DNA of 64,000 nucleotides from Thermoplasmata archaeon (GTDB taxonomy: Archaea > Thermoplasmatota > Thermoplasmata > Lutacidiplasmatales > UBA184), in assembly GCA_021790425.1 (NCBI GenBank), contig JAJYEA010000004.1:13227-77226 (forward strand). The letters run 5' to 3'. The translations under genes were made by a program, and so were the position numbers. Below are positions 34,170 to 63,222 of this stretch, one piece after another; positions within the stretch are counted from its first letter, which is position 1, and every line of letters begins with the position of its first letter. Under the pieces are notes generated by a model. The model did no database searches and had not been told where the DNA came from. It worked only from the letters and a program-made list of their open reading frames with translations.

Positions 34170-34193
34170 GGGGGGTCCATCCATTATCATGGC

Positions 34194-40383: not shown

Positions 40384-40500
40384 GGGGCGCCTCCCAGTGG
40401 ATCGTGGGTGCCGCTTGGATCGTCCGCCGGGCCTCGCCCCAGCCTCCCCAGTGGTGAAGCCGGAGGCCCTCGCCTCCCGACACGGAGAAGGGCAACCCGA

Positions 40501-44586: not shown

Positions 44587-44688
44587 CCAACTCCTATCAG
44601 GGCCGAGGACCCTATCAAGGCGCTGGGTCCGCGTTCCCCTGTCTCCCAGCGTGGTCGCGGCCACGAAGCCTCGGCGAGAAACGCCGGA

Positions 44689-46546: not shown

Positions 46547-46556
46547 GCGCCCTTCC

Positions 46557-47378: not shown

Positions 47379-47379
47379 G

Positions 47380-48027: not shown

Positions 48028-50141
48028 AGGACGCCCATCACCCCCCGGACAGCTTCCACGAGGCTAATAAAGGCGGGGTTCGACATGAGATATTGCAGGC
48101 CAAGGTAGATGAGCTTGATGCCCACGAACGCGCTCACGAGCCCCCCGATCCCGTAGATCATCAGGTTGCGCCGGAGGAGCTCCACGGCGGTGGCGGGGTG
48201 GAAGGAGACCCCGGTGATGGCGAGGGGGATGAGGAGCGGGATGGCGATCGCGTTGAAGAGGAGCGTGGCCAGCACGGCGAGCCCCGGGTTGGTGAGCCCC
48301 ATGATGTTCAGCGCGGCGATCCCGGAGAACCCGACGAAGATGGCGGGGATGATCGCGAAGTACTTCGCCACGTCGTTCGTGATGGAGAACGTCGTGAGCG
48401 CCCCCCGGGTGATCAGGAGCTGCTTCCCGATGGACACGATCTCGATGAGCTTGGTCGGGTCGCTGTCGAGGTCGACCATGTTGGCGGCCTCCTTGGCCGC
48501 CGAGGTCCCGCTGTTCATGGCGAGCCCCACGTCGGCGCGCGCGAGGGCGGGGGCGTCGTTGGTGCCGTCACCGGACATGGCCACGAGATGCCCGTAGTGC
48601 TTCTCGTTCTGGATGATCGAGAGCTTCGTCTCCGGCTTCGCCTCGGCGACGAAGTCGTTCACCCCGCTCTCCTGGGCGATCGCGGCCGCCGTGATCTTGT
48701 TGTCGCCGGTGCACATCACCGTGCGGATGCCCATGAGGCGGAGCTCCCGGATACGGTCCCGGATGCCCGGCTTGATGACGTCCTTGAGCACCACCATCCC
48801 GACCACCTTCCGGTTCACCGCCACGACGAGCGGCGTCATCCCCTGGCGCGCGGCCTCGCCCACCTGGTTGCGGAGCGAGGGGGGCAGGTAGCCCGCGTAG
48901 CCCTCGATCGCGGTGGCCGACCCCTTCATGAACTCCGTCCCGTCGGCGAGCACAATCCCGGACATCTTGCGCTCGGGCGTGAAGGGGACGAACCGGACCT
49001 TCTCCCGGTCGACCTTGTCGGGCAGCACCTTCCGGAGGGCGGCGAGCCGGATGATCGAGCGCCCCTCCGGCGTGTCGTCGAGCGCGGAGGAGGTGATGGC
49101 CGCCTTGACCAGCTGGGTCATGTCCACGTCGTCCGCCGGGGCGAACTGGACGGCGAGCCGGTTCCCGACGGTGATGGTCCCGGTCTTGTCGAGGATGAGG
49201 ACGTCCAAGTCCCCCGCGGCCTCGACCGCCCGGCCCGACTTGGCCACCACGTTCGCCTTCCCGACGCGGTTGATCCCCGAGATCCCGATGGCGGAGAGGA
49301 GCCCGCCGATGGTGGTGGGCAGGAGGCAGACGGAGAGGGCGATGAGCGTCCCGATGTTGAGGAGGTTGGGGTAGACGAAGCCGAGCAGGTAGCCGAGCGT
49401 GATGATCACCACGAGGATGACCGCGCTCAGTGCCGCGAGGAGGATCGTGAGCGCCACCTCGTTGGGGCTCTTCTCCCGGGTGGTCCCCTCGACCAGCTTG
49501 ATCATGCGGTCGAGGAACCCGGCCCCGGGCTCGGCGGTGATCCGCACCCGGATCACTCCCTGCAGCACCCGGGAGCCCCCGATGACGCTCGTCTTGTCGC
49601 CGCCGCTCTCGCGGACGACCGCCTCGGACTCCCCCGTCATCATGGACTCGTCGATGAGCGCTCCCCCTTGGATGACGTCGCCGTCGAGGGGGACGACCTC
49701 CCCGGGGTGGACCTCGACCGAGTCGCCCGGGTGGAGGTGGCCCGAGGAGACCCACTGAACGCTGCCGTCGGGGAGGAGCTGGCGTGCCTTGAGGCTCCCG
49801 CGGATCTCCCGGAGGCTGTCCGCCTGGGCCTTCGCCTGGGCCTCGGCGATCGCCTCGGCGATGTTCGCGAACCAGATGGTGGCGAAGAGGATCAGCGTGA
49901 TCGCGAGGTAGTAGAGCGAGTCGTGGTCCGCCCCCTCGATGTCCGGGAAGAGCTCCGGCACGAAGGTCAGCGCGAGCATGAAGAAGAAGAACACGTAGAC
50001 CACGAACATGATCGGGTTCCGGACCTGTTCCCGCGGGTGGAACTTGCGGAGCGAGGAGGCGATCGCGTGCGCCCAGCTCGTGTGCGGGCGTCGCCGCACG
50101 CTCACCTTGGCGCCGTAGCTGGAGGAGGGGGTGCCCTGCAT
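48024..50141 (-). CDS. kdpB: K+-transporting ATPase subunit B (P-type)
   Basis: RNPIMFVV, MTGES, CLLPTTIGGLL, DKTGT, MCTGDN, GDGTNDAPAL, NDVAKYF. Confidence 0.97.
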   Translation of the reverse strand: MQGTPSSSYGAKVSVRRRPHTSWAHAIASSLRKFHPREQVRNPIMFVVYVFFFFMLALTFVPELFPDIEGADHDSLYYLAITLILFATIWFANIAEAIAEAQAKAQADSLREIRGSLKARQLLPDGSVQWVSSGHLHPGDSVEVHPGEVVPLDGDVIQGGALIDESMMTGESEAVVRESGGDKTSVIGGSRVLQGVIRVRITAEPGAGFLDRMIKLVEGTTREKSPNEVALTILLAALSAVILVVIITLGYLLGFVYPNLLNIGTLIALSVCLLPTTIGGLLSAIGISGINRVGKANVVAKSGRAVEAAGDLDVLILDKTGTITVGNRLAVQFAPADDVDMTQLVKAAITSSALDDTPEGRSIIRLAALRKVLPDKVDREKVRFVPFTPERKMSGIVLADGTEFMKGSATAIEGYAGYLPPSLRNQVGEAARQGMTPLVVAVNRKVVGMVVLKDVIKPGIRDRIRELRLMGIRTVMCTGDNKITAAAIAQESGVNDFVAEAKPETKLSIIQNEKHYGHLVAMSGDGTNDAPALARADVGLAMNSGTSAAKEAANMVDLDSDPTKLIEIVSIGKQLLITRGALTTFSITNDVAKYFAIIPAIFVGFSGIAALNIMGLTNPGLAVLATLLFNAIAIPLLIPLAITGVSFHPATAVELLRRNLMIYGIGGLVSAFVGIKLIYLGLQYLMSNPAFISLVEAVRGVMGVL

Positions 50142-50145
50142 GCGC

Positions 50146-51837
50146 CTAGCCTCCCATCGCCCCTTGCGAGAAGGGGCCCATCACGAGGACGGGCAGGAAG
50201 AGAAGGCCCGTCACGACCGTCATGAAGAGGATGAGGTAGATGGTGAACGTGGCCGAGTCCGTCTTCAGGGTCCCCGGTCCGGGGGGGAGCTGGTCCTCCC
50301 CCGCGAGGGAGCCTCCGATCCCCAGCATCGCGAGGATCGGCAGGAAGCGACCCACGAGCATGATGATCGTCCCGGTGAGGTTGAAGAACAGGGTGTTGTC
50401 GGCGATCGGCCCCATCGCGCTACCGTTGTTCGCGGACTCGCTCGTGAACTCGTAGAGCACCACGGTGAACGAGTGGGGCCCCGTCCCGGCCGAGAGGGTG
50501 GCGAACCCGAAGACGTAGGCCACCGCGAGCGGGATGAGCACCATGAAGGGATGGGAGAGGATCGTGACGGCCGCCCACCGCATCTGGTCCCGCCCGATCT
50601 TCTTCCCGAGGTACTCGGGCGTGCGGCCCACCATGAGGCCGCCGACAAAGATGGCCAGGATCACGTTGATGAGCAGGACCCCGAACCCAGTCCCCACACC
50701 GCCCGGCGCGTCCTGCAGGAACATCCCCCAGAAGAGAACGATCTGGGCGCCGGGGGTGAGGGCCCCGATCGACATCGACGTGGCGCCCACGTTGTCGTAG
50801 ACGCTCGTCACCTGGAAGAGGGCGCTCTCCGGAAGGGTGAAGCGGTCCTCCACCCCGTTGAGGTATCCGCCCCCCTGGCCCACGCCCGTCCCCGCGAGGA
50901 AGGGGTTCGACGACTCGAAGTAGAGGAAGAGCAGGAGCGCGACGAGGAAGAGGACCAGGACGGTGGCGAAGAGCGGACGGGCCTCCTCCTTCCGGCGCAC
51001 CATCTGGGCGAACATGAAGGGGGCGCCGAAGGGGATGGCCATCATGAGCAGGATCGCGAGGAAGTTGGTCACCGCCGAGGGGTTCTGGAAGGGGTGCGCC
51101 ATGTTGGCGCTGAAGTAGCCTCCCCCGTTCGACCCGAGGAGCTCGATCCCGTTCCAGCTGCCCACCGGACCGAGCGGGACGATCTGGGGGGCTCCCCCGG
51201 TCAGCGGGGTGATCACCGCGCTCTGCGCCAGGGTCTGGGGCACGCCCAGGAACACGAAGATCAGGGCGGCGAGGAAGGCAAGGGGGAGGAAGACCCGGGT
51301 GATGGCCTTCACGACGTCCGCCCAGAAGTTGCCGATCCGCCCGTTCCGGCGGATGAACCCCCGCGTGAAGGCCACCACGACGACGAGGCCGATGGACGCC
51401 GAGAGGAACATGAGCATCTGGAGCCCGAGCAGGGCCGCGAAGAGGGAGACCTGGGACTCGGGGGTGTAGTGCTGGAAGTCCGTGTTCGTGGCGAACGAGG
51501 TGGCCGTGTGGAGCGCGAGGTCCCAGCTCATCCCCGGGGCCCGGAGGGCGTTCCAGGGCAGGCTCCCCTGGTCCATGAGCAGGAAGAAGACGAAGGCGAT
51601 GGCGGCCCCGTTGAGGAGGAGCAGGGCCGCGGCGTACTCCCTCCAGCGCATGTCGTGGTACTGGTTGACCCCCAGGATCCCGAAGATCCAGCGCTCCACG
51701 GGCGTCATGACCGAGTCGAGGAGGGTGGGCCGGCTGAGGAAGACGCGGGCGAGGTAGTCGCCCAAGGAACGGGCCAGCACGAGCCCGATGACCACCGTGG
51801 CGAGGATCTCCGGGGTCTCGGCGGCGACGCTCAGCAC
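50146..51837 (-). CDS. kdpA: K+-transporting ATPase subunit A
   Basis: TATSFATNTDFQHY, GNFWADVVK, LLGSNGGGYF, AHPFQNP, GLMVGRTPEYLGKKI, YEFTSESANNGS. Confidence 0.95.
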   Translation of the reverse strand: MLSVAAETPEILATVVIGLVLARSLGDYLARVFLSRPTLLDSVMTPVERWIFGILGVNQYHDMRWREYAAALLLLNGAAIAFVFFLLMDQGSLPWNALRAPGMSWDLALHTATSFATNTDFQHYTPESQVSLFAALLGLQMLMFLSASIGLVVVVAFTRGFIRRNGRIGNFWADVVKAITRVFLPLAFLAALIFVFLGVPQTLAQSAVITPLTGGAPQIVPLGPVGSWNGIELLGSNGGGYFSANMAHPFQNPSAVTNFLAILLMMAIPFGAPFMFAQMVRRKEEARPLFATVLVLFLVALLLFLYFESSNPFLAGTGVGQGGGYLNGVEDRFTLPESALFQVTSVYDNVGATSMSIGALTPGAQIVLFWGMFLQDAPGGVGTGFGVLLINVILAIFVGGLMVGRTPEYLGKKIGRDQMRWAAVTILSHPFMVLIPLAVAYVFGFATLSAGTGPHSFTVVLYEFTSESANNGSAMGPIADNTLFFNLTGTIIMLVGRFLPILAMLGIGGSLAGEDQLPPGPGTLKTDSATFTIYLILFMTVVTGLLFLPVLVMGPFSQGAMGG

Positions 51838-51846
51838 GGCCGCCCC

Positions 51847-51960
51847 TCAGAACCGTTCCGGGTGCACGATGGCATAGATCAGGTAGGCCACGATGACCCC
51901 GGTCAGCACGGTGAAGACGACCAGGCCCAAGTGGTTCCACAACACGTCGAGCGGATTCAT
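51847..51960 (-). CDS. kdpF: K+-transporting ATPase subunit F
   Basis: 37-aa hydrophobic peptide ending YLIYAIVHPERF, immediately upstream of kdpA. Confidence 0.88.
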   Translation of the reverse strand: MNPLDVLWNHLGLVVFTVLTGVIVAYLIYAIVHPERF

Positions 51961-51977
51961 GATGGATTCGTCAGATT

Positions 51978-52006
51978 CCTCCGAAGGAGCGCTCGGAGGT
52001 TTTAAT
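51978..52006 (-). promoter_or_regulatory. kdp promoter: ATTAAAA box followed by inverted repeat CCTCCGA-N8-TCGGAGG
   Basis: TATA-like box at 52000-52006; perfect 7-bp arms at 51978-51984 and 51993-51999, between the box and the kdpF start. Confidence 0.55.
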
Positions 52007-52226
52007 CCCTCCGTGGCCCCCCTCCGCTCGAAGAAGCTCCGGCTTCGGCCGCTCCGCGACACGGGGGGCCGCGAGGTATCCTTTCCTTCCGGGGCCGGCC
52101 TCTCGGCCTCCGCCTTCCCTTTTCCCAACGAGGAGATGGCCGAGGGGCCGGTTAGATTTCTCGCCTTGGAAAGCGGCCAAAGCTCAAATGGGCTCGACGT
52201 GGAGCCGCCCCCACAGGGTAGGTCAG

Positions 52227-53450
52227 ATGTGGTCATTCGATGCAACGGACACGTTGTTCATGGTGTTCTCTACCGTGCTCGTGATGTTCATGACGCCGGG
52301 CCTGGCGCTCTTCTACGGGGGCCTGGTGGGAGAGAAGGACGAGGTCGCGATCATGATGCAGAGCTTCGTCGCCCTCGGGGTGTCCACCCTCCTGTGGGTG
52401 GTGGTCGGCTATTCCCTGGTCTTCAGCGGGAACGTGGACGGGGTCATCGGGAACCTGAACCAGGCCTTCCTGCTGAACGCCTCGTCCAACACCCCTTCCC
52501 CCGTGAGCTCGAGCATCCCGCTCTACGTGTTCTTCGCCTACCAGATGATGGTGGTCATCATCACGCCCCCCCTCATTACCGGGGCGTTCACCAACCGGGT
52601 CCGGTTCGGGCCCTACCTCCTGTTCCTGGTCCTCTGGCAGCTCTTCGTCTACTTCCCGATCGCCCACATGGTCTGGGGCGGGGGTCTCCTTCAGAGCTGG
52701 GGCGTCCTGGACTTCGGAGGGGGTCTCGTCGTGCACACCCTCGCGGGGATGAGCGCGCTGGCCAGCGTGGCCTACCTGGGGAGCCGCTACGTGTTCGACA
52801 AGCCCCACAACCTGCACATGGTCGCCATAGGAATGGCGATCCTGTGGTTCGGATGGTTCGGGTTCAACGCGGGGAACGCGGACGGGATGAATGCCATCGC
52901 CGTCCTCGCTTTCTTGAACACCGCCCTGGCCGGAGGCGTCGCGAGCGTCGTCTGGATGCTGATGGACTGGGGATTCGAAGGGAAGCCGAAGCTCGTGGGG
53001 TTCCTCACGGGTGGGCTCGCGGGACTCGTGGTCGTCACGCCTGCGGCGGGCTACGTTGCGCCCTCGGCGGCCGTCATTCTCGGCATGGCGGCAGGGATCG
53101 TCTGCTACCTGGCGATCCGTTTCAAGAACTCCCGCCACTGGGATGACGCGCTGGACGTCTGGGGGGTGCACGGGATCGGAGGAATGCTCGGGGTCATCCT
53201 TCTGGGCGTCCTGGCGACCACGGCGGTCAACCCACAAGGTGCGAACGGTCTGCTTGCCGGGGGATCGTCGTTCTTCGCCAAGGAAGTGATGGCCACCGTC
53301 TTTGTGGCGGTCTTCGCGTTCGTCGCCACCTACATCATCCTCTTTGTGATCGGGAAGACGACAGACCTGCGGACTACCAAGGAGGTGCAGATCTCCGGGC
53401 TCGACCTCGCACTCCACGGTGAAGCGGCCTACGGGGAGCTTCCTCACTAG
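52227..53450 (+). CDS. amt: Ammonium transporter (Amt family)
   Basis: ATG 52227; FMTPGLALFYGG, DFGGGLVVH, LWFGWFGFNAG, DDALDVWGVHG, GLDLALHGEAAY. Confidence 0.95.
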   Translation: MWSFDATDTLFMVFSTVLVMFMTPGLALFYGGLVGEKDEVAIMMQSFVALGVSTLLWVVVGYSLVFSGNVDGVIGNLNQAFLLNASSNTPSPVSSSIPLYVFFAYQMMVVIITPPLITGAFTNRVRFGPYLLFLVLWQLFVYFPIAHMVWGGGLLQSWGVLDFGGGLVVHTLAGMSALASVAYLGSRYVFDKPHNLHMVAIGMAILWFGWFGFNAGNADGMNAIAVLAFLNTALAGGVASVVWMLMDWGFEGKPKLVGFLTGGLAGLVVVTPAAGYVAPSAAVILGMAAGIVCYLAIRFKNSRHWDDALDVWGVHGIGGMLGVILLGVLATTAVNPQGANGLLAGGSSFFAKEVMATVFVAVFAFVATYIILFVIGKTTDLRTTKEVQISGLDLALHGEAAYGELPH

Positions 53451-53873: not shown

Positions 53874-54359
53874 ATGGGGATTGCCGTGGACCCGGGTCTT
53901 GCCGTGTTGTTCGGATCCGAAGACCGGGTAAGGACGCTGGCCGCCCTAGCCAACGCAGACGCCCCCCTCACAGCCTACCGGGTCGCCACCATAGTGGGGA
54001 TCAAGCCCGCCAATGTCTATCGCGAACTGAAGCGGCTGATTCAGTTCAACGAGGTGGAAAGGGCTCCCACTTTGGACGGGAAGCCCGGCTGGAGGCTGGT
54101 CGATGCCGACGTGACGGCGCTTCTAAGGAAGCGCCTTCGGGTAGTTTGGAGTGAAGATATGTTCCGGGGAAACCGCGACCGCAGCAGGCGAGCGGCCCTC
54201 GCCGTTCGGAGAAGTTCACGGGTTCCACTCGACCTGGCATCCTTTAGTCCAGGCCGCCCCCCTTCCGCGGCGGCCGTGCGCCGACGTCTAGACAAGGATC
54301 GCGTCCTCGCGAAAGCCGGGGCCCGGACTTCCGTTCGTATGAAGCGGGCGAAGATTTGA
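53874..54359 (+). CDS. Winged-helix DNA-binding protein (putative antitoxin/autorepressor)
   Basis: LFGSEDRVRTLAAL...TAYRVATIVGIKPANVYRELKRL HTH; basic C-terminus; atypical codon usage. Confidence 0.75.
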   Translation: MGIAVDPGLAVLFGSEDRVRTLAALANADAPLTAYRVATIVGIKPANVYRELKRLIQFNEVERAPTLDGKPGWRLVDADVTALLRKRLRVVWSEDMFRGNRDRSRRAALAVRRSSRVPLDLASFSPGRPPSAAAVRRRLDKDRVLAKAGARTSVRMKRAKI

Positions 54360-54910
54360 ACGCGGACGAGTTGGGTCGGATCCTCACCAAAGCGAGGGAC
54401 GGAGGGGAGAGGAACCTCTGGCTCGGAGCGCTTCTCGCAAGGGAGACCGCGGTCGACGTCGTGATCGTGGGGGGGTCCGCGATCGAGGTCTACACCAGTG
54501 GGATGTACGTTTCGGGAGATATCGACATCGTGGGGGATCGGGGATCGATCATCTCAGCTCTGGAACAATGGGGGTTCCACCGGGAGGGGCGACTCTGGTC
54601 TCGCCCCGACCTTAGACTTTGGGTGGATCCGGTGGGCCGTGGGTACGCGGGTGATGTCCGAAAGCTCCGGGAGGTGTCGACCCCTTATGGTCCTGTCCGC
54701 CTGGCCTCCGTGGAGGACCTCATCGCAAACCGGTTGATCGAGGTGAAGGCTTGGCCTCGGGCGGGCACGGAGATGTTCGACCAAGCGGTCGTCCTCGCAG
54801 CGGAGTATGGACCTGACGTTGATTGGAACTACGTCACCGGGGTGGCCCGGCGCGAGGAGGCCGATGACTTGGTCCCGGAGTTGCGCCGCAGAATCGCACG
54901 GACCCGATGA
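54356..54910 (+). CDS. Pol-beta-superfamily nucleotidyltransferase (DUF6036/AbiEii-like), putative toxin
   Basis: TTG start overlaps the upstream stop (TTGA); VVIVGGSAIE...SGDIDIV (GG-x-A...DxD), SVEDLIANR. Confidence 0.72.
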   Translation: MNADELGRILTKARDGGERNLWLGALLARETAVDVVIVGGSAIEVYTSGMYVSGDIDIVGDRGSIISALEQWGFHREGRLWSRPDLRLWVDPVGRGYAGDVRKLREVSTPYGPVRLASVEDLIANRLIEVKAWPRAGTEMFDQAVVLAAEYGPDVDWNYVTGVARREEADDLVPELRRRIARTR

Positions 54911-55137: not shown

Positions 55138-56310
55138 TCACTGGGAGTTCATGAGGAACCGCATCCAACGGATCCTCTCTCCCGCATGGTAGGTCCGCCC
55201 GCGCCGGAGGACCGCGAAGCCCTCCGCGGCCAGCAGCGCCGGGCCATGCGCGACTCCCCACGGTAAGGGGTGGATCCTCCCCCCGATCCTTCGAAAGAGC
55301 ACGGTGCTGTCCATCCGGTGGTGGACGGTGACCTCCTCCCCCAGTTCTACGTTCTCGAAGATGCGGAGCTCCTCTCCCACGAGACGCGAGAGCACGTGGA
55401 GCCCGTGCTCGTGGAAGACGGTGAGGGCGGAAGTGATCTGTCCCGGGAGGACCACCACCGGTCGTCCCGACACGAGCGCCACGCCCCCCTGCTTCAGCAC
55501 GTTCACCGTCACCCCCTCGAAGAGCAGGGTCCCCATGCGCTCCAAGACCCTCTTCGTGGCGTCCCTGTTTCCCCTCGATGCGCCACCGATGGTGAAGAGT
55601 AGTTCACATCGGGGGATCGCATCGTGGATGGCTCTGCGAACGGTCTCGGGCTCGTCGGCCACCGCGGGGAGCAAAGTCGGACGCGCGAAGTGAAGGAGTG
55701 CCCGGACCACCGGTCCGATCGAGTCGGGGGTCCCGCCCTCGCGCGAACCCTTCGCGCCCCTGAGCTCGCTCCCAATGGGGAGGATCGCCACCCGAGGATC
55801 GTGGACCCGCGCTTCCGACCGTCCCTCGGCGATGAGGGCGCTGAGATGGTAGGGCGTCACCTGCTGCCCCCGGTCGAGGAGCAGGCTCCCTCGCGCGAGG
55901 AACTCCCCCCGGGGAACGACGTCCTGTCCCCGCCGGACCCCGGTGGCGACGTACAGTCGGCCGTCTTCGACCCGGGCGGCTTCGACCCGGACCACCGCGT
56001 TGGCGCCCCGAGGGAGCGGGTCTCCGGTGCTGATCGGAACCGCGTGGCCTTTCCTGAGGGCGCTTCCCTTGGGTCCACGGCCGAAGGCCTGTCGTTCCAA
56101 CAGGTAGGGCTCCGGCGCAGGGCTCCCCCACGCGTTCACCGCGTACCCGTCCATCGCCGAGGAATCCCTCACGGGGAGATTCCTACGAGCCCGCACTTCC
56201 CTCGCGGAGTAACGTCCCACGGCTTCCTCGCAGGGAACGGAGCGGACGGGGGCCCGGCGGAGCCGGGCGGCATCGATGCGTCGTCGCGCCTCCTCTAGGG
56301 GAACTAGCAT
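55138..56310 (-). CDS. moeA: Molybdopterin molybdenumtransferase
   Basis: SAMDGYAV, ISTGDPLPRGANAVVRVE, PIGSEL, TIGGASRG, LPGQITSAL. Confidence 0.85.
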   Translation of the reverse strand: MLVPLEEARRRIDAARLRRAPVRSVPCEEAVGRYSAREVRARRNLPVRDSSAMDGYAVNAWGSPAPEPYLLERQAFGRGPKGSALRKGHAVPISTGDPLPRGANAVVRVEAARVEDGRLYVATGVRRGQDVVPRGEFLARGSLLLDRGQQVTPYHLSALIAEGRSEARVHDPRVAILPIGSELRGAKGSREGGTPDSIGPVVRALLHFARPTLLPAVADEPETVRRAIHDAIPRCELLFTIGGASRGNRDATKRVLERMGTLLFEGVTVNVLKQGGVALVSGRPVVVLPGQITSALTVFHEHGLHVLSRLVGEELRIFENVELGEEVTVHHRMDSTVLFRRIGGRIHPLPWGVAHGPALLAAEGFAVLRRGRTYHAGERIRWMRFLMNSQ

Positions 56311-56345
56311 GAAGTGCCCCCGCGAGGTGCCCAGAGGGAGACGAC

Positions 56346-56813
56346 ATGCCGATGATCATCCAAGTCGTGGGGGCGAGCGGTTCCGGGAAGACGTTCGTGC
56401 TCGAGCGGGCCATCCGTCGTCTCCGCGCCGAGGGCTACCGGGTGGCCGCGCTGAAGCACTCCCACCACCCGATCGACGTCCGGGGCAAGGACACCGACCG
56501 GCTGCGGCGGAGCGGCGCGAATCCCGTCCTCTTCGTCTCCCGTGGCTGGGCGCTCTTCGCCTCCGGGGAACCCTGGGACCTCCTGCCGACGCTCCCGGTC
56601 GATGTGGTGCTCGTGGAGGGCTACCACCGGCGACGTCTCTCCCGCCATCGCTACCGGGTGGAGCGTCCGGGCGACGCACCTGAGGTGGTGGAGGAGATCC
56701 TCCGCGTGGTCCGAGGGGCCATCCCTCATCCCCCCGTTCATCCCCGGCCCCCGTCGGGGAAGCCGGCCTTGAGGCGGGCGCGCCGCGCCCGTCGCTCCGG
56801 GTCCTCCCGGTGA
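56346..56813 (+). CDS. mobB: Molybdopterin-guanine dinucleotide biosynthesis protein B
   Basis: VVGASGSGKT, GYRVAALKHSHH, GKDTDR, VLVEGY. Confidence 0.88.
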   Translation: MPMIIQVVGASGSGKTFVLERAIRRLRAEGYRVAALKHSHHPIDVRGKDTDRLRRSGANPVLFVSRGWALFASGEPWDLLPTLPVDVVLVEGYHRRRLSRHRYRVERPGDAPEVVEEILRVVRGAIPHPPVHPRPPSGKPALRRARRARRSGSSR

Positions 56814-57652
56814 CCCTCGGGCATCACACCGTAAGCATCCGTGAGGCAGTGATACTCGAGGAGGGGGATCCCGAAGTCCCGGTACACCTCGGCCTCCCGT
56901 CCGAGGGAGTCCAGGGCCTCCTCCGGACGGCCGCGGGCCACGGCCTCCCTCGCCTCCCAGAAGGCGCGTGGCGCATCGGGGGGCACGGAACAAGTTTGTC
57001 GGGGCTCTCCCGTCGCGGATGGACCCATGGGCATCGACGCGATCTTCCGCGAGCGCTCGAGGTCCTCCCGTGTGTTCACGTTCGCGAAGGTGAGCGGGGT
57101 CCCTCCGAGCTGCTCGGTCGGGACGATGCCGGGATGGGAGACCGATCGAATGAGATCGGTCGAGCGGCGGCGCGGGAAAGCGGCTGCCGCAGGCGACTCG
57201 ACGAGGCGTCGCCCGGCCCCCTTGCGAACCCAAAGGACGAGGGGCTCCACCCTCCCGTCCCTGCCCCACGGACACGCCGCGTCGAACCCGGCAGCGCGCG
57301 TCGTCGCTTCGAGCGCGGCGAGCACCTTGCCCTCCAGCCACGGCATGTCGCCCGCCACGAAGAGCAGATCGCTCGTTCTCTCGACCGCCAAGGTGGCCAG
57401 GATCCCTCCGAGCGGCCCGGTCTCCGACCGCCCCGGCGGGTCGAGGATGATCCGCGTCCCGGAAGGCAGGATCGGACGTAGTCGCTCGGCGTGCTCCTCG
57501 GACTCCACGGAGACGGCCACCGTGGCCGTCACCTCCTTCAGGTGGCGGAGGACGTGGGCGAGCAAGGGGGTCCCGTCGAGCAGGGCGGCGAGCTTGTCCT
57601 TCCCGAACCGCTGCGACCGGCCCCCGGCCAGAGCAACCCCGAGTGTCGTCAT
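56738..57652 (-). CDS. mobA: Molybdenum cofactor guanylyltransferase with about 90-aa C-terminal extension
   Basis: LAGGRSQRFGKDK, GPLGGI, VAGDMP, VEPL, FANVNTREDL. Confidence 0.85.
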   Translation of the reverse strand: MTTLGVALAGGRSQRFGKDKLAALLDGTPLLAHVLRHLKEVTATVAVSVESEEHAERLRPILPSGTRIILDPPGRSETGPLGGILATLAVERTSDLLFVAGDMPWLEGKVLAALEATTRAAGFDAACPWGRDGRVEPLVLWVRKGAGRRLVESPAAAAFPRRRSTDLIRSVSHPGIVPTEQLGGTPLTFANVNTREDLERSRKIASMPMGPSATGEPRQTCSVPPDAPRAFWEAREAVARGRPEEALDSLGREAEVYRDFGIPLLEYHCLTDAYGVMPEGHREDPERRARRARLKAGFPDGGRG

Positions 57653-57837
57653 CGGTAGACCCCTCCCGGGTGGCGCCGGAGCCCCTTCCCGGTTCCCGGC
57701 GGCGCCCCCCGGTCCATGGGACCTTCCAACACCTCCGTCCTAAAAAGGGGCCCGCGGCGCCTCAGGAGTCAGCAAGGTCGGTGAGGCGAAGAGGAGCGCC
57801 GGGGGAGGGCGGACGTCCGGGAACCTCCGGCGATGCA

Positions 57838-58326
57838 TCAACTCGCGAGCATCACTGCGGCGAAGAGCACCGCCACGGTGAGGGCCGCGGAGATCCCCGT
57901 GAGCGCGCGATCGAACGACCTCCACTTCTGGAGGCTGGGGTTGCGGGCCCCCCGCTCGGAGCGGCGACGGATTTCGGGCCCGAGCACAAAGCTGTGGAAG
58001 GCGCTGACCAGGACCAGGAAGAGGACGAGCAGGAGCTTCACCACGAGCCACGGGGTAGACGAGACTCCCGCCATGCCGGTGGGCCCGAGGAACCAGGTGA
58101 GGTTGTAGAGCCCCGTCGCGATGGTGACGCCGAGCGCCCCCCACATCATCCACCCCAAGGAGCGGGCGATCCGGGACATCGTGCGGGCATAGAGGGCCGG
58201 GTCGTCCCCGAGGGAGGAGCGGACCGCCACGGCCACGATGCCGAGGGCCACGGTGCCTCCCACCCAGATCGAGGCTCCGAGGATGTGGACGAAGAGCACG
58301 ACGTCGGCGAGGGTGATCACGGTCAT
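57838..58326 (-). CDS. CopD-like four-TM membrane protein
   Basis: LFVHILGASIWVGG, ATGLYN, VVKLLLV...SAFHSF; ATG 58326. Confidence 0.7.
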   Translation of the reverse strand: MTVITLADVVLFVHILGASIWVGGTVALGIVAVAVRSSLGDDPALYARTMSRIARSLGWMMWGALGVTIATGLYNLTWFLGPTGMAGVSSTPWLVVKLLLVLFLVLVSAFHSFVLGPEIRRRSERGARNPSLQKWRSFDRALTGISAALTVAVLFAAVMLAS

Positions 58327-58419
58327 CGAACCAGGGCCTTCGGGTCCCGCTCCCTCCGTGCGTCCGCTCCCATGGTGTTCCCGGGCACGAGCAAAGCGGG
58401 CACACCGGATGGGAGGGCC

Positions 58420-58434
58420 ACCGAACGGTTTCGG
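58420..58434 (+). promoter_or_regulatory. Palindromic site ACCGAACGGTTTCGG upstream of the hemerythrin gene
   Basis: CCGAA-N4-TTCGG; identical copy at 61023-61037; TTACC begins 11 nt after the site. Confidence 0.75.
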
Positions 58435-58486
58435 GGCCCACCCCTTACCCGTGGGGGCGCTGGAGCGCACCGAGGTACAACGGGAG

Positions 58487-58957
58487 ATGTCGGAATCCAC
58501 GGAACGCTCGATCGAGGAGGTCCTGAAGGACGATCATGACGAGATGGAGGAGACGTGGGAGCGTGCCCGGGAGATGCGGGCCCGGGGAGATCCCCAGGCC
58601 ACCGAGGTGTACGAGCAGTTCATCCATGCCCTCCAGGAGCACATCTCGGTCGAGGAGCAGGAGCTCTTCCCCCACAGTCTCAAGACCCGGGGGACCGATG
58701 TGCGCCCGCTCGTGGAGCAGCTCCAGCGGGAGCACATGGTGATCCAGACGGTGCTCGGCAAGATCCACGGCGACCTCACCTCGGGACACGCGGTCTCCGA
58801 GGAGGACGAGGACGCGCTACGGAACCTGCTCGGGATCCACAACGCCCGCGAGGAGGGCTTCTACTACCCCGACTTCGACGGTCGGTTCTCCCAGACCCAG
58901 GAGGGCCGGGAACTCTCCCGGAACGTCCTGGCAGGATGCCACTGCGGGAAGCACTGA
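58487..58957 (+). CDS. Hemerythrin (HHE cation-binding) domain protein
   Basis: DDH, EHISVEEQELFP, REHMVI, HNAREEGFYYP. Confidence 0.85.
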   Translation: MSESTERSIEEVLKDDHDEMEETWERAREMRARGDPQATEVYEQFIHALQEHISVEEQELFPHSLKTRGTDVRPLVEQLQREHMVIQTVLGKIHGDLTSGHAVSEEDEDALRNLLGIHNAREEGFYYPDFDGRFSQTQEGRELSRNVLAGCHCGKH

Positions 58958-58975
58958 GCTCGGACGGATCCCGCC

Positions 58976-59566
58976 TCAGCGGCCCCACCGCGCCTTGGCG
59001 ATGGTCGAGTACGCGGCGAGGTCAAAGGAGGAGAACAGCACGAAGCGTACCTCCCGGATCGAGGGGTGCCGCGCCACCCCCTCCTCGACCGTGGCGATCG
59101 CCACGGGTCCCGCCCGGTCGATCGGATACCCATAGGCTCCGGTGCTGATGGAGGGGAAGGCGACGGAGCCGATTCCGTGCTCCTCCGCCACCTCGAGCGA
59201 CCGCCGATAGCAGCGGCGGAGGATCTCCTCCTCCCCGGCACCGCCTCCCTGCCAGACGGGCCCGACCGTGTGGATGACGTACCGGGCGCGGAGCCGGCCT
59301 CCCGAGGTCGCGGCCGCCTCGCCCGGGGGCATCCCCCGGGGCCAGCGGGCCTCCCGCAGGGAACGGCACTCCGCCAGGATCGCGGGACCTCCCCGCGCGT
59401 GGATGGCGCCATCGACACCCCCACCGCCGAGGAGCGAGGAGTTGGCCGCGTTCACGATCGCGTCGGTGTCCTGGTCGGTGATGTCGCCGCGGAGGACACG
59501 GACGGTGGCTTTCGACACGAGGTAGGCCGCGGCTTCGTCCAAGGGATCTCCCCAACCGGAACGCAT
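58976..59566 (-). CDS. Macrodomain protein (O-acetyl-ADP-ribose deacetylase, YmdB-like)
   Basis: GDIT...DAIVNAANSSLLGGGGVDGAIH, VIHTVGPVW, AFPSISTGAYGYP. Confidence 0.92.
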   Translation of the reverse strand: MRSGWGDPLDEAAAYLVSKATVRVLRGDITDQDTDAIVNAANSSLLGGGGVDGAIHARGGPAILAECRSLREARWPRGMPPGEAAATSGGRLRARYVIHTVGPVWQGGGAGEEEILRRCYRRSLEVAEEHGIGSVAFPSISTGAYGYPIDRAGPVAIATVEEGVARHPSIREVRFVLFSSFDLAAYSTIAKARWGR

Positions 59567-59626
59567 TCTCCGGAGGCTCTTACCTCCGTCCCCCGACGGG
59601 GGCATCCCCCTTTCATAGCCTCTCGG

Positions 59627-60244
59627 ATGTCCCGGGCCGTGCGGCGTTGCGCATGGGCCTCCGGGGATGACGTCCGGATGCAGGAGTACCACGACCGGGA
59701 GTGGGGCGTCCCGGTCCACGACGACCGTCGCCACTTCGAGTTCCTCGTGCTGGAGGGCGCCCAGGCCGGGCTGAGCTGGTCGCTCATCCTCCAACGTCGT
59801 CCCGCCTATGCCCGCGCCTTCAGCGGCTTCGACCCCGCGAGCGTGGCCCGCTATTCGGCCGCCCGGGTCGACCGGCTGGTCGAGGACGCCTCGATCATCC
59901 GGAACCGCCGCAAGATCGAGTCCGCGGTGGGGAACGCCCGCCGGTTCCTGGCCGTCCAGCGGGAGTTCGGGAGCTTCGACGACTACGGCTGGCGGTTCGT
60001 CGGGGGACGTCCCCGGCAGAATCGCTGGAAGTCCCCCGGGGACATCCCGGTCACCACGCCGGAGTCGGATGCGTTCAGCGAGGACCTCCGGCGCAGGGGA
60101 TTCCGCTTCGTGGGGTCCACGGTGATCTACGCCCACATGCAGGCGGTGGGGATGGTGAACGACCATCTCGTCGGCTGCGACCGCTATCGCGAGGTGGCGG
60201 GACTCCGTTCCCCAGGGGGAAGCCGTCCGTTCCCCGCGCCGTGA
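59627..60244 (+). CDS. tag: DNA-3-methyladenine glycosylase I
   Basis: RCAW, YHDREWG, FEFLVLEGAQAGLSW, IIRNRRKI, GFRFVGSTVIYAHMQAVGMVNDH..C. Confidence 0.93.
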   Translation: MSRAVRRCAWASGDDVRMQEYHDREWGVPVHDDRRHFEFLVLEGAQAGLSWSLILQRRPAYARAFSGFDPASVARYSAARVDRLVEDASIIRNRRKIESAVGNARRFLAVQREFGSFDDYGWRFVGGRPRQNRWKSPGDIPVTTPESDAFSEDLRRRGFRFVGSTVIYAHMQAVGMVNDHLVGCDRYREVAGLRSPGGSRPFPAP

Positions 60245-60263
60245 GCCTCCCCAGGGGCAGGGG

Positions 60264-60932
60264 TCAGAGCCTCGTGGAGGTTTGGACCACGTCCTTCAGG
60301 ATCTTCCGCTCGACGTTGGCGAGGGACTCCGAGAGCGTGGACTTCGCCACCCCGAGCTCCTCGGCCAGCCCGGTCAGGGAGATCCCGCGGGGGACCTCGT
60401 AGTATCCCCGCGTCATCGCGATCAGGAAGATCTCGCGCTGGCGGGGGGTCAGCACGGAGAGCTCGTCCGCCTCGCCTCCGTGCCGCAAGGACTCGATCGT
60501 GACGCCCGGCGTCTCCTTGGCGAGGAACCGGTAGAGCTCCTTCACCTTCGCTTCGGAAGCGACGATCACCCAGGTGGCGGCCCCCTGGCGGATGAAGAAC
60601 GGAAAGCGGGGCATGAGGTGGACCTGCGAGAGCCCGCGCAGGAGCGTGGCGGCGGTGTGCACGATGCGGAACTCCGCGCTGTTCTTCCGCACTTCGACCA
60701 GCTCGACCTCCCGCACCCCCTTGGACCTCCGGAGGGCCTCTCCGAGCTCGCGCGCGTTCTCCCCGTGGACGCGCAACTCGACCGTGCTCTCGTTGCCCTT
60801 CGCCATCACGTGGCCGAGGACCTCGATCGAGATCTCAGGATGCTCCCGGGTGATCACACCCATCCAGGCCCCCGTGGAGAGCGGCACCCGGAGCCGGCAG
60901 ATCGTCGTCGTGGGCTCCGAGGGCTTCGCCAT
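60264..60932 (-). CDS. Bacterio-opsin-activator-type (HTH_10) transcriptional regulator
   Basis: C-terminal LTPRQREIFLIAMTRGYYEVPRGISLTGLAEELGVAKSTLSESLANVERKI. Confidence 0.88.
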   Translation of the reverse strand: MAKPSEPTTTICRLRVPLSTGAWMGVITREHPEISIEVLGHVMAKGNESTVELRVHGENARELGEALRRSKGVREVELVEVRKNSAEFRIVHTAATLLRGLSQVHLMPRFPFFIRQGAATWVIVASEAKVKELYRFLAKETPGVTIESLRHGGEADELSVLTPRQREIFLIAMTRGYYEVPRGISLTGLAEELGVAKSTLSESLANVERKILKDVVQTSTRL

Positions 60933-60934
60933 GC

Positions 60935-60963
60935 CGGTCGGTGCACGACCGTAAGCGCTTATA
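60935..60963 (-). promoter_or_regulatory. Promoter of the HTH regulator: TATAAG (60958-60963) plus inverted repeat CGGTCG-N5-CGACCG over the likely start site
   Basis: TATA 26-31 nt before ATG 60932; palindrome TAAGCGCTTA at 60952-60961; inverted repeat at 60935-60951. Confidence 0.5.
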
Positions 60964-61022
60964 CGATGCAGCCGGCCGGTCGCAGCCGGGCCCGCGGGCG
61001 GCCAGACGGGAGTAGAACGTCG

Positions 61023-61037
61023 ACCGAACGGTTTCGG
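61023..61037 (+). promoter_or_regulatory. Palindromic site ACCGAACGGTTTCGG upstream of the DUF2249 operon
   Basis: Identical to 58420-58434; TTACC begins 10 nt after the site. Confidence 0.75.
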
Positions 61038-61082
61038 CCTCGGTGTTTACCGGAGTTGCGTCGTGGAGGCTCCGAGTGCCCC

Positions 61083-61367
61083 ATGACCGAACCGAAGCCG
61101 ACCGACGTGCTGGTGATCGATGTGCGGCCGATCCCCCCTGCCCAGAAGCATCCGGCGATCTTCGGGGCCTTCGAACGGCTCGCGGAGGGAGAGAGCTTCC
61201 TCCTGGTCAACGACCACGACCCCAAACCCCTCTACTACCAGTTCCTGGCGGAGCGCAACGGCACCTTCTCCTGGACGTACGTCGAGAGCGGTCCCCGCAT
61301 CTGGAGGGTGCGGATCGGCAAGACGGCCCCGGCCCCGGGGCCGAAGATCCCGTTGGCATCCCCGTGA
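61083..61367 (+). CDS. DUF2249 domain protein
   Basis: IDVRPIPPAQKHPAIF, LVNDHDPKPLYYQF, WTYVESGPRIWRVRI. Confidence 0.88.
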   Translation: MTEPKPTDVLVIDVRPIPPAQKHPAIFGAFERLAEGESFLLVNDHDPKPLYYQFLAERNGTFSWTYVESGPRIWRVRIGKTAPAPGPKIPLASP

Positions 61368-62497
61368 CCACGGCCCGCGACGGGCCTGGCATCCTCCGGG
61401 CCCGTCTCCCCGTGGTGGCGTTGATCGCCTTCGCAACCTTCCTGGGTCTCTGGGCCGGCCTGGTCCTCCTCGGCTGGTCCCTCCCCGTGGTCTCGGTCGG
61501 ATTCCCCGACTGGCACGGGCCGCTCATGGTGAACGGGGTCCTGGCGACGCTCATCGTTCTCGAGCGCGCGGTCGCGCTGCGGCGCGCCTGGGCGTTTGCC
61601 GCCCCCGTGGTTTCTGGGGGAGGCACCCTCGCTCTGCTGACCCCGCTCGGTCCGATGCTGGGGGGCGTGTTCTGGATCGTGAGCGGCCTCCTCCTGACCG
61701 CGGTCTTCCTCGAGATCCATCGACGGCAACCGGGGTTCCACAGCGCCGTGCTCACCACCGCGGCGGCGTTGCTCTTCTTCGGCAACCTCACCTGGTGGGC
61801 CACGGGCGACGTCCCCGCGATGGTGCTCTGGTGGGTCTCCTTCCTCGTCCTGCTCATCGCGGGAGAGCGACTCGAGCTCTCGCGCGTCTTTCGTCTCACG
61901 CTGGCGAAGAGGGTCGCCTTTGGGGTCGGGGCCGCGATGCTCGTGGTGGGGCCGGTCCTCAGCACCGTGACCCTCGTTCCGGCGATAGCCACGGAGGCGG
62001 CCGGGCTCGTGACCCTGGGTGTGTGGCTCCTCCTCTACGATGTGGCCCGGGCGAACCTCCCGCTCCCGGGACGCCCTCGGTTCCTCGGGCTCTGCCTCGT
62101 CTCCGGCTACGCGTGGATCGTCTTCGCGGGAGCGCTCGCCCTCGGGACCGGGGCGAGTTTGCCCGGCCTCGTCTACGACGCCTTCCTGCACGCGATCTTC
62201 ATCGGCTTCGTCTTCACCATGATCATGGCCCACGCGCTGGTGATCCTGCAGGCGTTCCTGGGCCGAAGCGTGCCCTTCACGAGAGCCTTCTACGTTCCGC
62301 TCGTCCTGATCGAGGGGACGCTGGCGCTCCGGGTGGCCTCCGACCTAGCGGGATGGGATGCCCTCCGGATGTGGGCCGGGCTGCTGAACGTCGTGGCCAT
62401 CCTCTCCTTCGTGCTCGTCCTCGGGGGGAACTTGGCGCGGGACCGTCTGCGGTGGATCCAGGACCTCTTCCACCCCGATTTCATGAACGTCCGGTGA
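61364..62497 (+). CDS. NnrS-like polytopic membrane protein
   Basis: GTGA-coupled to DUF2249; HGPLMVNGVLATLIVLERAVAL, IAGERLELSR, YDAFLHAIFIGFVFTMIMAHA; about 11-12 TM helices. Confidence 0.68.
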   Translation: MTTARDGPGILRARLPVVALIAFATFLGLWAGLVLLGWSLPVVSVGFPDWHGPLMVNGVLATLIVLERAVALRRAWAFAAPVVSGGGTLALLTPLGPMLGGVFWIVSGLLLTAVFLEIHRRQPGFHSAVLTTAAALLFFGNLTWWATGDVPAMVLWWVSFLVLLIAGERLELSRVFRLTLAKRVAFGVGAAMLVVGPVLSTVTLVPAIATEAAGLVTLGVWLLLYDVARANLPLPGRPRFLGLCLVSGYAWIVFAGALALGTGASLPGLVYDAFLHAIFIGFVFTMIMAHALVILQAFLGRSVPFTRAFYVPLVLIEGTLALRVASDLAGWDALRMWAGLLNVVAILSFVLVLGGNLARDRLRWIQDLFHPDFMNVR

Positions 62498-62555
62498 GCG
62501 CGGCCCCACCGGTCAGGGATATCTGGCGCGGCCGCTGTACCCGGGCACCACGTTC

Positions 62556-62810
62556 ATGCCCCGGCTGAGAGTCCTGCTCTTCGCGACGGCCCGCGAGGCG
62601 GTGGGCCAGAGCGAGCTCGAGGTCCCGTACCGTCGGGGGCAGACGCTCGCGGAGGTCCTCGCCGAGGTCGTCGCGGCCCACCCTCGCCTCCGCCCCCACC
62701 TCCGTCACCGGCTGGCCCTCGACGGGGAGTTTCTGGAGCAACCGGCGTCCGCGGTGATCCTCTCCTCCCAGAAGGAGGTCGCCATCCTGCCGCCGTTCTC
62801 CGGAGGGTGA
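62556..62810 (+). CDS. moaD: Molybdopterin synthase sulfur carrier (MoaD/ThiS/SAMP-like)
   Basis: VLLFATAREAVG...EVAILPPFSGG, C-terminal GG. Confidence 0.9.
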   Translation: MPRLRVLLFATAREAVGQSELEVPYRRGQTLAEVLAEVVAAHPRLRPHLRHRLALDGEFLEQPASAVILSSQKEVAILPPFSGG

Positions 62811-62817
62811 CGCCGGA

Positions 62818-63222
62818 ATGATCCCCTCTGCCCTCATCCGGCTCACCAAGAGCCCCATCCGCCCCGAGACGTACCGGAAGACCCTGGAGGACCCGGGGAG
62901 CGGAGGGGTCGCGCTCTTCGAGGGCCGCGTCCGAGACGACCCGGGCCACCACGCGACCCGTCTCTACTACGAGGCCTACTCGCCCCTCGCGCTCCGCGAA
63001 CTCGAGCGGCTCTCCCGGCAGGCCGCGACCCGGTTCGGGGCCCGGCGGATCGTGATCGTCCACCGGCTGGGCCACCTGCGGACCGGGGAGATCGCGGTCT
63101 TCATCGGGGTGGCCACCGCCCACCGCACGAAGGCCTTCGCCGCCTGCCGATTCCTGATCGACGAGCTCAAGCGCCGGGTCCCGATCTGGAAGACCCGGGA
63201 AGAGAGCCGCACCAAGCGTTGA
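62818..63222 (+). CDS. moaE: Molybdopterin synthase catalytic subunit
   Basis: GGVALFEGRVRD, LYYEAY, HRLGHLRTGE, HRTKAF, LKRRVPIWK. Confidence 0.93.
   Translation: MIPSALIRLTKSPIRPETYRKTLEDPGSGGVALFEGRVRDDPGHHATRLYYEAYSPLALRELERLSRQAATRFGARRIVIVHRLGHLRTGEIAVFIGVATAHRTKAFAACRFLIDELKRRVPIWKTREESRTKR

Follow-up and report, generated by a model that had tools for sequence, protein, structure and literature searches.

The locus considered here raises the question of whether a set of genes related to nitric oxide (NO), O2 or metal stress forms one island with the molybdenum cofactor (Moco) biosynthesis genes among which it lies, or is a system of its own. The genes occupy positions 55138-63222 of a 64,000-nt window (the whole stretch of DNA analyzed), which comes from contig JAJYEA010000004.1 of a Thermoplasmata archaeon. 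A sequence-only reading had joined all of them into a support module for anaerobic N-oxide respiration, in which cofactor supply is combined with NO protection. The reading favored here, at a probability of roughly 0.6, is narrower: a five-gene regulon responsive to NO or low O2, governed by an HTH_10 activator at an operator of the CGAAC-N2-GTTCG type. Its products would be an NnrS-like membrane protein carrying heme, the small partners of that protein and a di-iron protein of RIC type, and it would serve to protect or to signal.

Gene calls in the window, whose G+C content is ~70%, were made from a listing of open reading frames (ORFs) together with Pfam and NCBIfam scans. The five genes are arranged about two divergent promoter regions. 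A CopD-like 4-helix membrane protein of 162 aa (57838-58326, minus strand, ATG at 58326; Pfam CopD, 5.8e-10) is encoded divergently from a hemerythrin-like (HHE) protein of 156 aa (58487-58957, plus strand; PF01814, 2e-09). An HTH_10 (bacterio-opsin-activator-like) regulator of 222 aa (60264-60932, minus strand; HTH_10, 1.3e-17) is likewise divergent from a DUF2249 protein of 95 aa (61080-61367, plus strand; PF10006, 1.9e-29), and the latter is followed by a 12-helix membrane protein of 377 aa (61364-62497, plus strand) that has no Pfam/NCBIfam match at E<=0.01 and an oxidase-like fold by model. The GTG start of the 12-helix gene overlaps the DUF2249 stop codon (GTGA).

Each divergent promoter region of the module carries one copy of the exact 14-mer CCGAACGGTTTCGG, and these are its two copies in the 64 kb: predicted operator 1 at 58421-58434, between the CopD-like and hemerythrin genes, and the identical predicted operator 2 at 61024-61037, between the HTH_10 and DUF2249 genes. 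When the sequence was shuffled 100 times, 0/100 shuffles held any copy. The palindromic core of both operators is CGAA-N4-TTCG; the five other matches to this core in the window are all of the form CGAAG..CTTCG and all intragenic. The core begins 65 nt before the ATG of the hemerythrin gene at operator 1 and 55 nt before that of the DUF2249 gene at operator 2, and a TATA-like box (GTTTACC at operator 2) lies ~10 nt downstream of the motif in the direction of each of these genes. In two related archaeal loci (L002 and L006) the equivalent divergent regions contain CCGAAC[CG]GTTTCG(G) or CCGAACGGGTTCG, and in three further loci (L014-L016) the core is found 2-4 times in the vicinity of the module. 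None of the bacterial loci examined contained the motif in its strict form.

In composition and gene content the window resembles the Lutacidiplasmatales of PMC9287336, to which it may belong. The closest named relatives of the window are metagenome-assembled genomes (MAGs) of Thermoplasmatota/Thermoplasmata, and relatives whose 12-helix proteins are 59% and 52% identical to that of the window keep the order CopD-like, hemerythrin, HTH_10, DUF2249, 12-helix. With the additional genes of the relatives in brackets, their full order is CopD-like, (FNR-like reductase, 4Fe-4S ferredoxin, 176-aa protein), hemerythrin, DUF488, HTH_10, (408-418-aa membrane protein), DUF2249, 12-helix; the bracketed genes are missing from the window, where a macro-domain gene and a Tag gene stand at the position of DUF488. 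The flanks of the two relatives are entirely different: one has DNA polymerase B and DUF7521 beside the module, the other tubulin and glyoxalase. Since the five families recur together in the relatives and the exact operator is found at both promoter regions, this core is more than a chance assembly. As to the bracketed genes, the CopD-like gene of the relatives is co-oriented (L002 4974-6679) with those for the FNR-like reductase (FAD_binding_6/NAD_binding_1), the 4Fe-4S ferredoxin and the 176-aa helical protein, a set that may serve to deliver electrons to the module. The second membrane protein, of 408-418 aa and without a Pfam domain, lies between HTH_10 and DUF2249 (L002 8341-9597; L006 6377-7603; L095 2416-3582). 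A hypothetical protein of a Halogeometricum nirK/nor cluster is its homologue (E 9e-8), and BLAST self-matches of this second membrane protein hint at a three-fold internal repeat; judged by sequence, it may be another oxidase-homology 12-helix family.

The Moco genes of the window do not share in this conservation. They comprise moeA (55138-56310, minus strand; MoeA_N, 1.9e-33), mobB (56346-56813, plus strand; MobB, 4.6e-22, with TIGR00176 over its cut-off) and mobA (56738-57652, minus strand; NTP_transf_3, 6.7e-29) on one side of the module, for Moco insertion and MGD synthesis, and moaD (62556-62810, plus strand; ThiS, 9.6e-12) and moaE (62818-63222, plus strand; MoaE, 4.5e-34) on the other, with MoaC and hemC (porphobilinogen deaminase) just past the end of the window (locus L001). 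No Moco gene lies within 10 kb in the module neighborhoods of the relatives, and the interleaving is seen in the genome of the window only, in 0/4 of the related arrangements examined (L002, L006, L014 and L015/L016). No operator was found upstream of moaD, of mobA or of moeA/mobB. Because the adjacency is not conserved in relatives and the operator is not shared, the Moco genes are to be placed outside the regulon: moeA-mobB-mobA and moaD-moaE form a Moco cluster of the ordinary kind, interrupted in the lineage of the window by insertion of the module, and they are neighbors of the module rather than its members. The Moco supply that the sequence-only reading had made part of the module is thus not borne out. 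Within the cluster, mobA has a C-terminal extension of ~100 aa past the MobA domain, and the convergent 3' ends of mobA and mobB overlap by 76 nt (56738-56813), so that one ORF end may be over-called.

All the genes that the sequence-only reading had named are present where it placed them, and Pfam and NCBIfam bear out each label but that of the "NnrS-like" protein. It overlooked two, the macro-domain gene (58976-~59566, minus strand; Macro, 5.6e-43) and the Tag gene for DNA-3-methyladenine glycosylase I (59627-60244, plus strand; Adenine_glyco, 4.5e-75; start MSRAVRRCAW), both between the hemerythrin and HTH_10 genes. The macro-domain gene is a lineage-specific insert that is probably outside the regulon, and the Tag gene is a lineage-specific insert as well. 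The insert at 58976-60244 may be related to DNA damage or ADP-ribose, or may simply be unrelated.

The regulator and its operator connect the module to the control of denitrification in haloarchaea. The HTH_10 domain of the regulator scores 63.8 bits against a cut-off of 23.1, and BAT falls just below its cut-off (24.9 against 25.8). Full-length homologues with 28-35% identity occur on 132 plasmid records, and among the matches listed all the top ones are haloarchaeal (megaplasmids). When five of the best haloarchaeal homologues were opened for gene context, a DUF2249 gene was divergent from the regulator homologue in 3/5 loci, a nirK/nor, oxidase or halocyanin context was present in 4/5, and CCGAACNNGTTCGG lay ~50-60 nt upstream of the regulator start in 4/5. 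A relaxed form of the motif has 18 copies in the ~61 kb of these five loci, as compared with 12 in bacterial loci that total 1.02 Mb. In H. mediterranei, CGAACATGTTCG or CGAATATGTTCG stands 66-79 nt before the ATG in the promoters of nor, nos and nirK, the activity of the nor and nos promoters falls when this motif carries point mutations, haloarchaeal promoters with the motif are switched on by anoxia alone, and the regulator that acts on the motif at nir/nor/nos is described as unknown (PMC10062603). Under denitrifying conditions, RNA-seq of H. mediterranei shows induction of four DUF2249 genes and of the bacterio-opsin-activator-like gene of the nirK-nor cluster (PMC11218638). A CGAA-N4-TTCG semi-palindrome ~55-80 nt upstream of gene starts and beside an HTH_10 gene is found in the window, in its relatives and in haloarchaea alike. 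The unit of regulator, operator and DUF2249 is, to judge from sequence, common to Halobacteria and the Thermoplasmatota lineage of the window, and the conserved adjacency points to the HTH_10 protein as the candidate binder of the operator.

The 12-helix protein belongs to a large unnamed family. The protein collection already has an entry for an identical 377-aa product; members of the family are annotated as hypothetical everywhere and no Pfam/NCBIfam model covers them. The family amounts to more than 3,281 matches in 90% clusters and, at 50% identity, to 3,055 clusters at E<=1e-3 or 2,394 at E<=1e-10; at least 534 species genomes from many bacterial phyla and Thermoplasmata carry it. Its invariant residues are H51, E67, R68, W156, E168, R169, E171, R174, D226, D272, H276 and H290. 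A confident AlphaFold (AF2) model built from 38 sequences has 12 long helices, with pLDDT 92.9 and pTM 0.90, and its top 10 PDB matches by Foldseek are all CcoN, NorB or qNOR (TMq 0.42-0.66). CcoN entries reach 0.65-0.66, NorB 0.58 and the best qNOR 0.58, with other qNOR entries at 0.42-0.56; bovine COX1 stands lower in the list at 0.62.

Several assignments of this protein were tried and rejected. As a member of the NnrS family (PF05940) it reaches, with Pfam at E<=10, 6.8 bits (E 4.9) where the cut-off is 28, the best of ten family members scores 10.9 bits, E 0.28, and hhalign gives a probability of 0.2-0.3% against either one NnrS sequence or a 26-sequence NnrS alignment. The earlier label "NnrS-like" accordingly holds for fold and size and fails for family membership: a model of a genuine NnrS (pLDDT 83.5) matches the same structures, 8smr_E, 3mk7, 6xkw_n and 8bgw_A. 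Subunit I of the heme-copper oxidases and NO reductases (NORs) is likewise rejected, as its set of six His ligands (helices 2, 6, 7, 7, 10, 10) is not found and the three invariant His are in helices 2 and 10. An internal three-fold repeat was not significant when thirds of the protein were compared by hhalign; a GFLxxxIxxER motif is visible in both helices 2 and 6. Sequence similarity between the 12-helix family and the CopD-like 4-helix protein has a probability of 0.2%.

From the helix boundaries and the positive-inside rule, both termini of the modeled 12-helix protein would be cytoplasmic. In the model this would put H51 (helix 2) and H276 (helix 10) close to the outer face, in the manner of the low-spin heme ligands of oxidases, and E67, R68, E168, R169, E171, R174, D226 and H290 at the cytoplasmic face. 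Natural fusions of family members agree with this topology: an N-terminal DUF59/FeS_assembly_P domain in four, a C-terminal extra helix with cytochrome c (CVSCH) in two and an N-terminal VKOR domain in one (P0245, P0261, P0258, P0268, P0320, P0329 and P0249). To the extent that domain composition is a guide, the fusions argue that the 12-helix protein is a redox-active membrane heme protein.

The neighborhoods of the family in other organisms were surveyed by iterated profile searches in 80 loci/genomes from many phyla, 3 kb around the family gene. Within this distance DUF59 occurs in 21 loci, DUF2249 in 18, hemerythrin in 18, Crp/Fnr in 17, DUF1858 in 8 and a CopD-like gene in 5, and at least one partner family is present in 48/80. 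The CopD-like subfamily of the window, which is also that of the module in the relatives, directly adjoins the 12-helix gene (E 1e-53 to 1e-58) in five MAGs from bacteria, of which four carry a delta-proteobacterial label. On pHG1 of C. necator H16 the homologue, WP_011154151, is accompanied by Rrf2, DUF2249, hemerythrin, DUF59, nrdDG, norB, ytfE (norA) and norR; on a plasmid of P. fungorum an Rrf2-NnrS-hemerythrin-DUF2249 set stands beside a DUF59-DUF2249-[12-helix family]-hemerythrin set; and in an Armatimonadota locus the family member forms one run with Crp, DUF2249, DUF1858, hemerythrin and DUF488. We take COG4309 to be the DUF2249 family. In the NO-responsive regulons surveyed by Rodionov et al. 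(PMC1274295), dnrN/ytfE, nnrS and COG4309 are recurrent members.

The Chloroflexota loci without those partners have a different set. A cupin of ~105 aa is immediately upstream of the family gene in at least 9 of them (examples are L019, L038, L048, L050, L057, L062, L078 and L084), a protoglobin-domain fusion protein of ~310-360 aa precedes it in 4 (L056, L062, L077 and L078), and a metallo-beta-lactamase-fold protein is present in 3. Three ThiS-family Pfam matches are also found among the ORFs upstream of the family gene in Chloroflexota, without being traced to particular ORFs, and on pMHR1-3 of Haloprofundus a MoaD/ThiS-family gene (L094 9503-9957) has CCGAACACGTTCGG 50 nt upstream. Taken at the level of family matches, these two occurrences hint at a recurrent MoaD/ThiS-like partner.

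Of the three small proteins of the module, the hemerythrin and the CopD-like protein are less than the names first given to them imply. The hemerythrin (PF01814, 38.5 bits against a cut-off of 25.3) keeps the HHE di-iron ligand set H17, H53/E57, H83 and H118/E122, with H53 in an 'EH' motif, and H17, E57, E82-H83, H118 and E122 are invariant over 9 sequences that include the C-domain of C. necator YtfE/NorA. It is not a full RIC/YtfE/ScdA protein: TIGR03652 gives 18.6 bits against 204.7, over the C-domain only, and there is no ScdA_N. The YtfE/ScdA-type label of the sequence-only reading was therefore too specific for what is a single HHE domain. Sequence searches of the PDB with the hemerythrin gave weak matches only (7bhc). 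Co-encoded small DUF2249 or DUF1858 proteins may supply the missing ScdA_N part. A C-terminal CxCG tail (58940-58957), CHCGKH, CHCGHR or CSCGKR in three Thermoplasmatota and not present in bacterial homologues, may from its CxCG(K/H)(H/R) pattern be a thiol or metal site.

The CopD-like protein matches Pfam CopD (PF05425) marginally (39.9 bits against 32.1), over the last ~100 residues of the family only, with weak matches to DUF4149, DUF2269, UPF0093 and DUF2214. The CopD equivalog (NF033808; ~290 aa, 8 helices) is rejected, as the 162-aa protein scores 43.8 bits against 195 and covers profile positions 152-285 only, and of the CopD designation the 4-helix domain is retained and the full protein is not. 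The DUF2249 protein matches the full 70-position model (101.7 bits against a gathering threshold of 29.5); a PDB sequence search found no solved-structure relative and an exact-sequence look-up found no record of it.

A mechanism can be proposed for the module as a whole. The HTH_10 activator would bind the palindrome CCGAAC-N2-GTTTCGG. At operator 1 it would drive the hemerythrin gene and the divergent CopD-like gene, and at operator 2 the DUF2249/12-helix operon together with its own divergent gene. The products would act against NO or sense it, and possibly O2. The hemerythrin is predicted to be a cytoplasmic di-iron protein that binds NO/O2 or repairs iron centers in the manner of RIC. For the 12-helix protein a role like that of NnrS is proposed, as a heme protein of the membrane with a putative bis-His heme near the outer face (H51 of helix 2 and H276 of helix 10) and a conserved Glu/Glu/His/Arg cluster predicted at the cytoplasmic face, and the DUF2249 and 4-helix CopD-like proteins would be its small partners.

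Among the alternatives, a single integrated support island for N-oxide respiration, with Moco/bis-molybdopterin guanine dinucleotide (bis-MGD) supply and NO protection coupled functionally and transcriptionally, is quite unlikely. The presence of mobA and mobB does imply a bis-MGD enzyme somewhere in the genome, moaD-moaE follow the 12-helix gene at 58 nt on the same strand with no terminator-like site between, the operator stands before the Haloprofundus MoaD/ThiS-family gene, and in a Thermodesulfobacteriota locus mobB and a molybdopterin oxidoreductase lie 3-6 kb from a family member. Against this, besides the missing Moco genes in the relatives and the missing operator at moaD, mobA and moeA/mobB, the surroundings of the 12-helix gene in the 80 loci were, by profile search, essentially free of Moco genes, and the window is without a Mo enzyme or N-oxide reductase, just as the sequence-only reading had said in placing the catalytic reductases outside it. 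What stands of that reading is that hemerythrin, DUF2249, HTH_10 and the 12-helix protein are a functional unit tied to NO and denitrification contexts; Moco cofactor supply drops out of it. At the other extreme, the macro-domain and Tag genes do look like unrelated inserts, as they would in a chance juxtaposition of unrelated small genes, but for the five genes such a juxtaposition is effectively refuted by synteny kept across genomes at 49-59% protein identity and by the shared exact operator, of which 0 are expected by chance.

In a regulon for O2 sensing or micro-oxic adaptation, the hemerythrin would bind O2, the oxidase-fold protein and its partners would handle O2 or oxidative stress, and the operator would answer low O2 in the manner of NarO, with no specific role for NO. 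Hemerythrin, protoglobin and cupin neighbors are classic O2 binders or sensors, anoxia alone activates the motif-bearing haloarchaeal promoters (PMC10062603), and an aerobic or facultatively anaerobic life is described for related Thermoplasmatota (PMC9287336). This reading is nevertheless rather unlikely, given that the contexts in bacteria relate to NO in particular (Rrf2/NsrR-like regulators, norB, ytfE and norR) and that DUF2249/COG4309, ytfE and nnrS belong to NO regulons. A module for metal (Fe/Cu) handling or Fe-S assembly, with transport or reduction of metal ions by the CopD-like and 12-helix proteins and a metallochaperone role for DUF59, DUF2249 and hemerythrin, appears very unlikely: its CopD match is to a generic 4-helix unit only (43.8 bits against 195), no CopC, P-type ATPase or metal-sensing regulator is found in the module, and operator and regulator tie the module to nir/nor regulons. 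It draws on that CopD similarity, on the frequency of DUF59/FeS_assembly_P as neighbor and fusion, on the conserved Glu/Glu/His cluster at the cytoplasmic face, on the CxCG tail of the hemerythrin and on the metal-rich acid mine drainage habitat, and it overlaps the favored reading in that NO damage is iron-center damage. A bolder joint proposal, unlikely as a whole, would make the 12-helix protein, possibly with the CopD-like protein and hemerythrin, a minimal redox enzyme of oxidase fold, not characterized before, that handles NO or O2. It would have an outer bis-His heme supplied from cytochrome c or quinol, to which the natural fusions point, and a non-heme metal site of E67/E168/E171/H290 at the cytoplasmic side. 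The HTH_10 protein beside DUF2249 would at the same time be the haloarchaeal nir/nor/nos regulator, the pair either predating the split of Halobacteria and Thermoplasmatota or having been exchanged.

Several observations weigh against the NO/low-O2 regulon as favored here. The hemerythrin, cupin and protoglobin neighbors suit O2 sensing as well as they suit NO sensing. Scanned by Pfam and in the ORF listing, the regulator has no PAS/GAF domain and no recognizable sensor cofactor site, and it has a single Cys. The Foldseek E-values of the 12-helix model are weak (0.05-0.7) although the TM-scores are consistent, and the family has 3 invariant His as against 6 in true heme-copper oxidases and NORs, for which reason a catalytic binuclear center in this family would be unlikely. 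About 32 of the 80 loci are without any partner family, some of them owing to short flanks. The search for a Mo enzyme or N-oxide reductase found none in the 64-kb window, and the sequence is traced to acid mine drainage metagenomes, that is, to DNA only. Lastly, moaD starts 58 nt downstream of the 12-helix gene, and no operator and no terminator-like site were found in the gap, a bacterial sigma-70 and intrinsic-terminator scan being uninformative for an archaeon; moaD-moaE could thus be co-transcribed with the DUF2249/12-helix operon, which would partly rescue the Moco link.

The rest of the window is of a different character. At 53874-54910, the genes for a winged-helix protein (weak TrmB/HTH_20) and for a 184-aa protein without a Pfam match share 4 nt and resemble a two-gene cassette, possibly of the toxin-antitoxin-like or nucleotidyltransferase-pair kind. 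Further upstream (45725-52005 and 52188-53450) are a tetrapyrrole methylase, a tandem Usp protein, kdpC-kdpB-kdpA with a small kdpF-like ORF, and an Amt ammonium transporter. In 1-7424 and 34059-44664 lie several very large proteins of secreted type, in which Kelch, PKD, Y_Y_Y, pro-kumamolisin and SBP_bac_5 domains occur and whose genes are overlapped by long antisense ORFs of the sort typical of high-G+C DNA, and arginine-biosynthesis genes are also found in the remainder.

Neither the component families nor their link with NO is new. What appears to be new is the conservation across phyla of the operator/regulator/DUF2249 unit, the occurrence of a compact regulon of this kind in acidophilic Thermoplasmatota, and the recognition that the 12-helix partner represents a separate family of very large size, which has an oxidase fold and informative fusions and lacks a model. 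The unit offers a candidate regulator and a cross-phylum operator for the haloarchaeal regulon whose regulator is described as unknown (PMC10062603). The NO-, O2- and iron-related neighbors and fusions of the 12-helix family make it a good biochemical target for NnrS-like protection. The module also suggests NO/O2 defense in the acidophilic Thermoplasmatota of mine drainage, where nitrite would be expected to decompose chemically to NO. Finally, an over-reading is corrected, the Moco genes adjoining the module without being part of it.

Among known systems, the DrpA/DrpB pair of Thermus thermophilus, in which the DUF2249 protein DrpA modulates the regulators of nitrate respiration, resembles the window in that a small DUF2249 gene overlaps its partner gene, the pair being under an anaerobic master regulator (PMC6282519). 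In the window, unlike in Thermus, the partner is the 12-helix membrane protein rather than the 273-aa DrpB and no nar operon is nearby. The RIC/YtfE/ScdA/NorA proteins share the di-iron ligands with the hemerythrin, which aligns with the C-domain of C. necator YtfE, and differ from it by their N-terminal ScdA_N domain. The haloarchaeal denitrification operator CGAAYATDKTYG has the same half-sites and spacing as that of the window (CGAAC-N2-GTTCG) at a similar distance from the ATG, and the haloarchaeal regulators (the candidate E6P09_00735 of H. mediterranei and NarO of H. volcanii) belong to the same HTH_10 family without PAS/GAF; a divergent DUF2249 gene is a further feature in common. The window motif differs in its central bases, which are G/C-rich rather than AT, and in its right arm, which is often GTTTCG, and the regulon of the window has no nir, nor or nos genes in view. 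NarO is described as having a Cys-rich N-terminus, as against the one Cys of the window regulator.

NnrS is a heme- and copper-containing membrane protein of NO-responsive regulons in R. sphaeroides and V. cholerae. The 12-helix protein resembles it in size (~380 aa, against 380-400), in having 12 helices and no extra domains, in its oxidase-like predicted fold with the same best PDB neighbors, and in its hemerythrin, DUF2249 and Rrf2 neighbors; the conserved residues differ, being H65, H67, H300, H305 and mostly H327 in NnrS (P. fungorum numbering) and H51, H276, H290 and GERLExxR here. With CcoN and NorB the 12-helix protein shares its architecture (TMq 0.58-0.66), and the cytochrome c fusions of family members recall the NorC and CcoO/P partners. 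It is, unlike them, ~100 residues shorter, with at most 3/6 of the canonical His positions and no helix 7 HH pair among the conserved columns of the family. Pei, Li, Kinch and Grishin are said to have described in 2014 a group of HCO-homology (HCOH) proteins made up of 12-helix 'three-unit' families, NnrS among them, and 4-helix 'single-unit' families. A passage of PMC11218638 cites Pei et al. 2014 as linking DUF2249 to the oxidase superfamily. The HCOH concept suits both membrane proteins of the module, the 12-helix protein with its few His and the 4-helix protein resembling CopD, DUF4149, DUF2269 and UPF0093.

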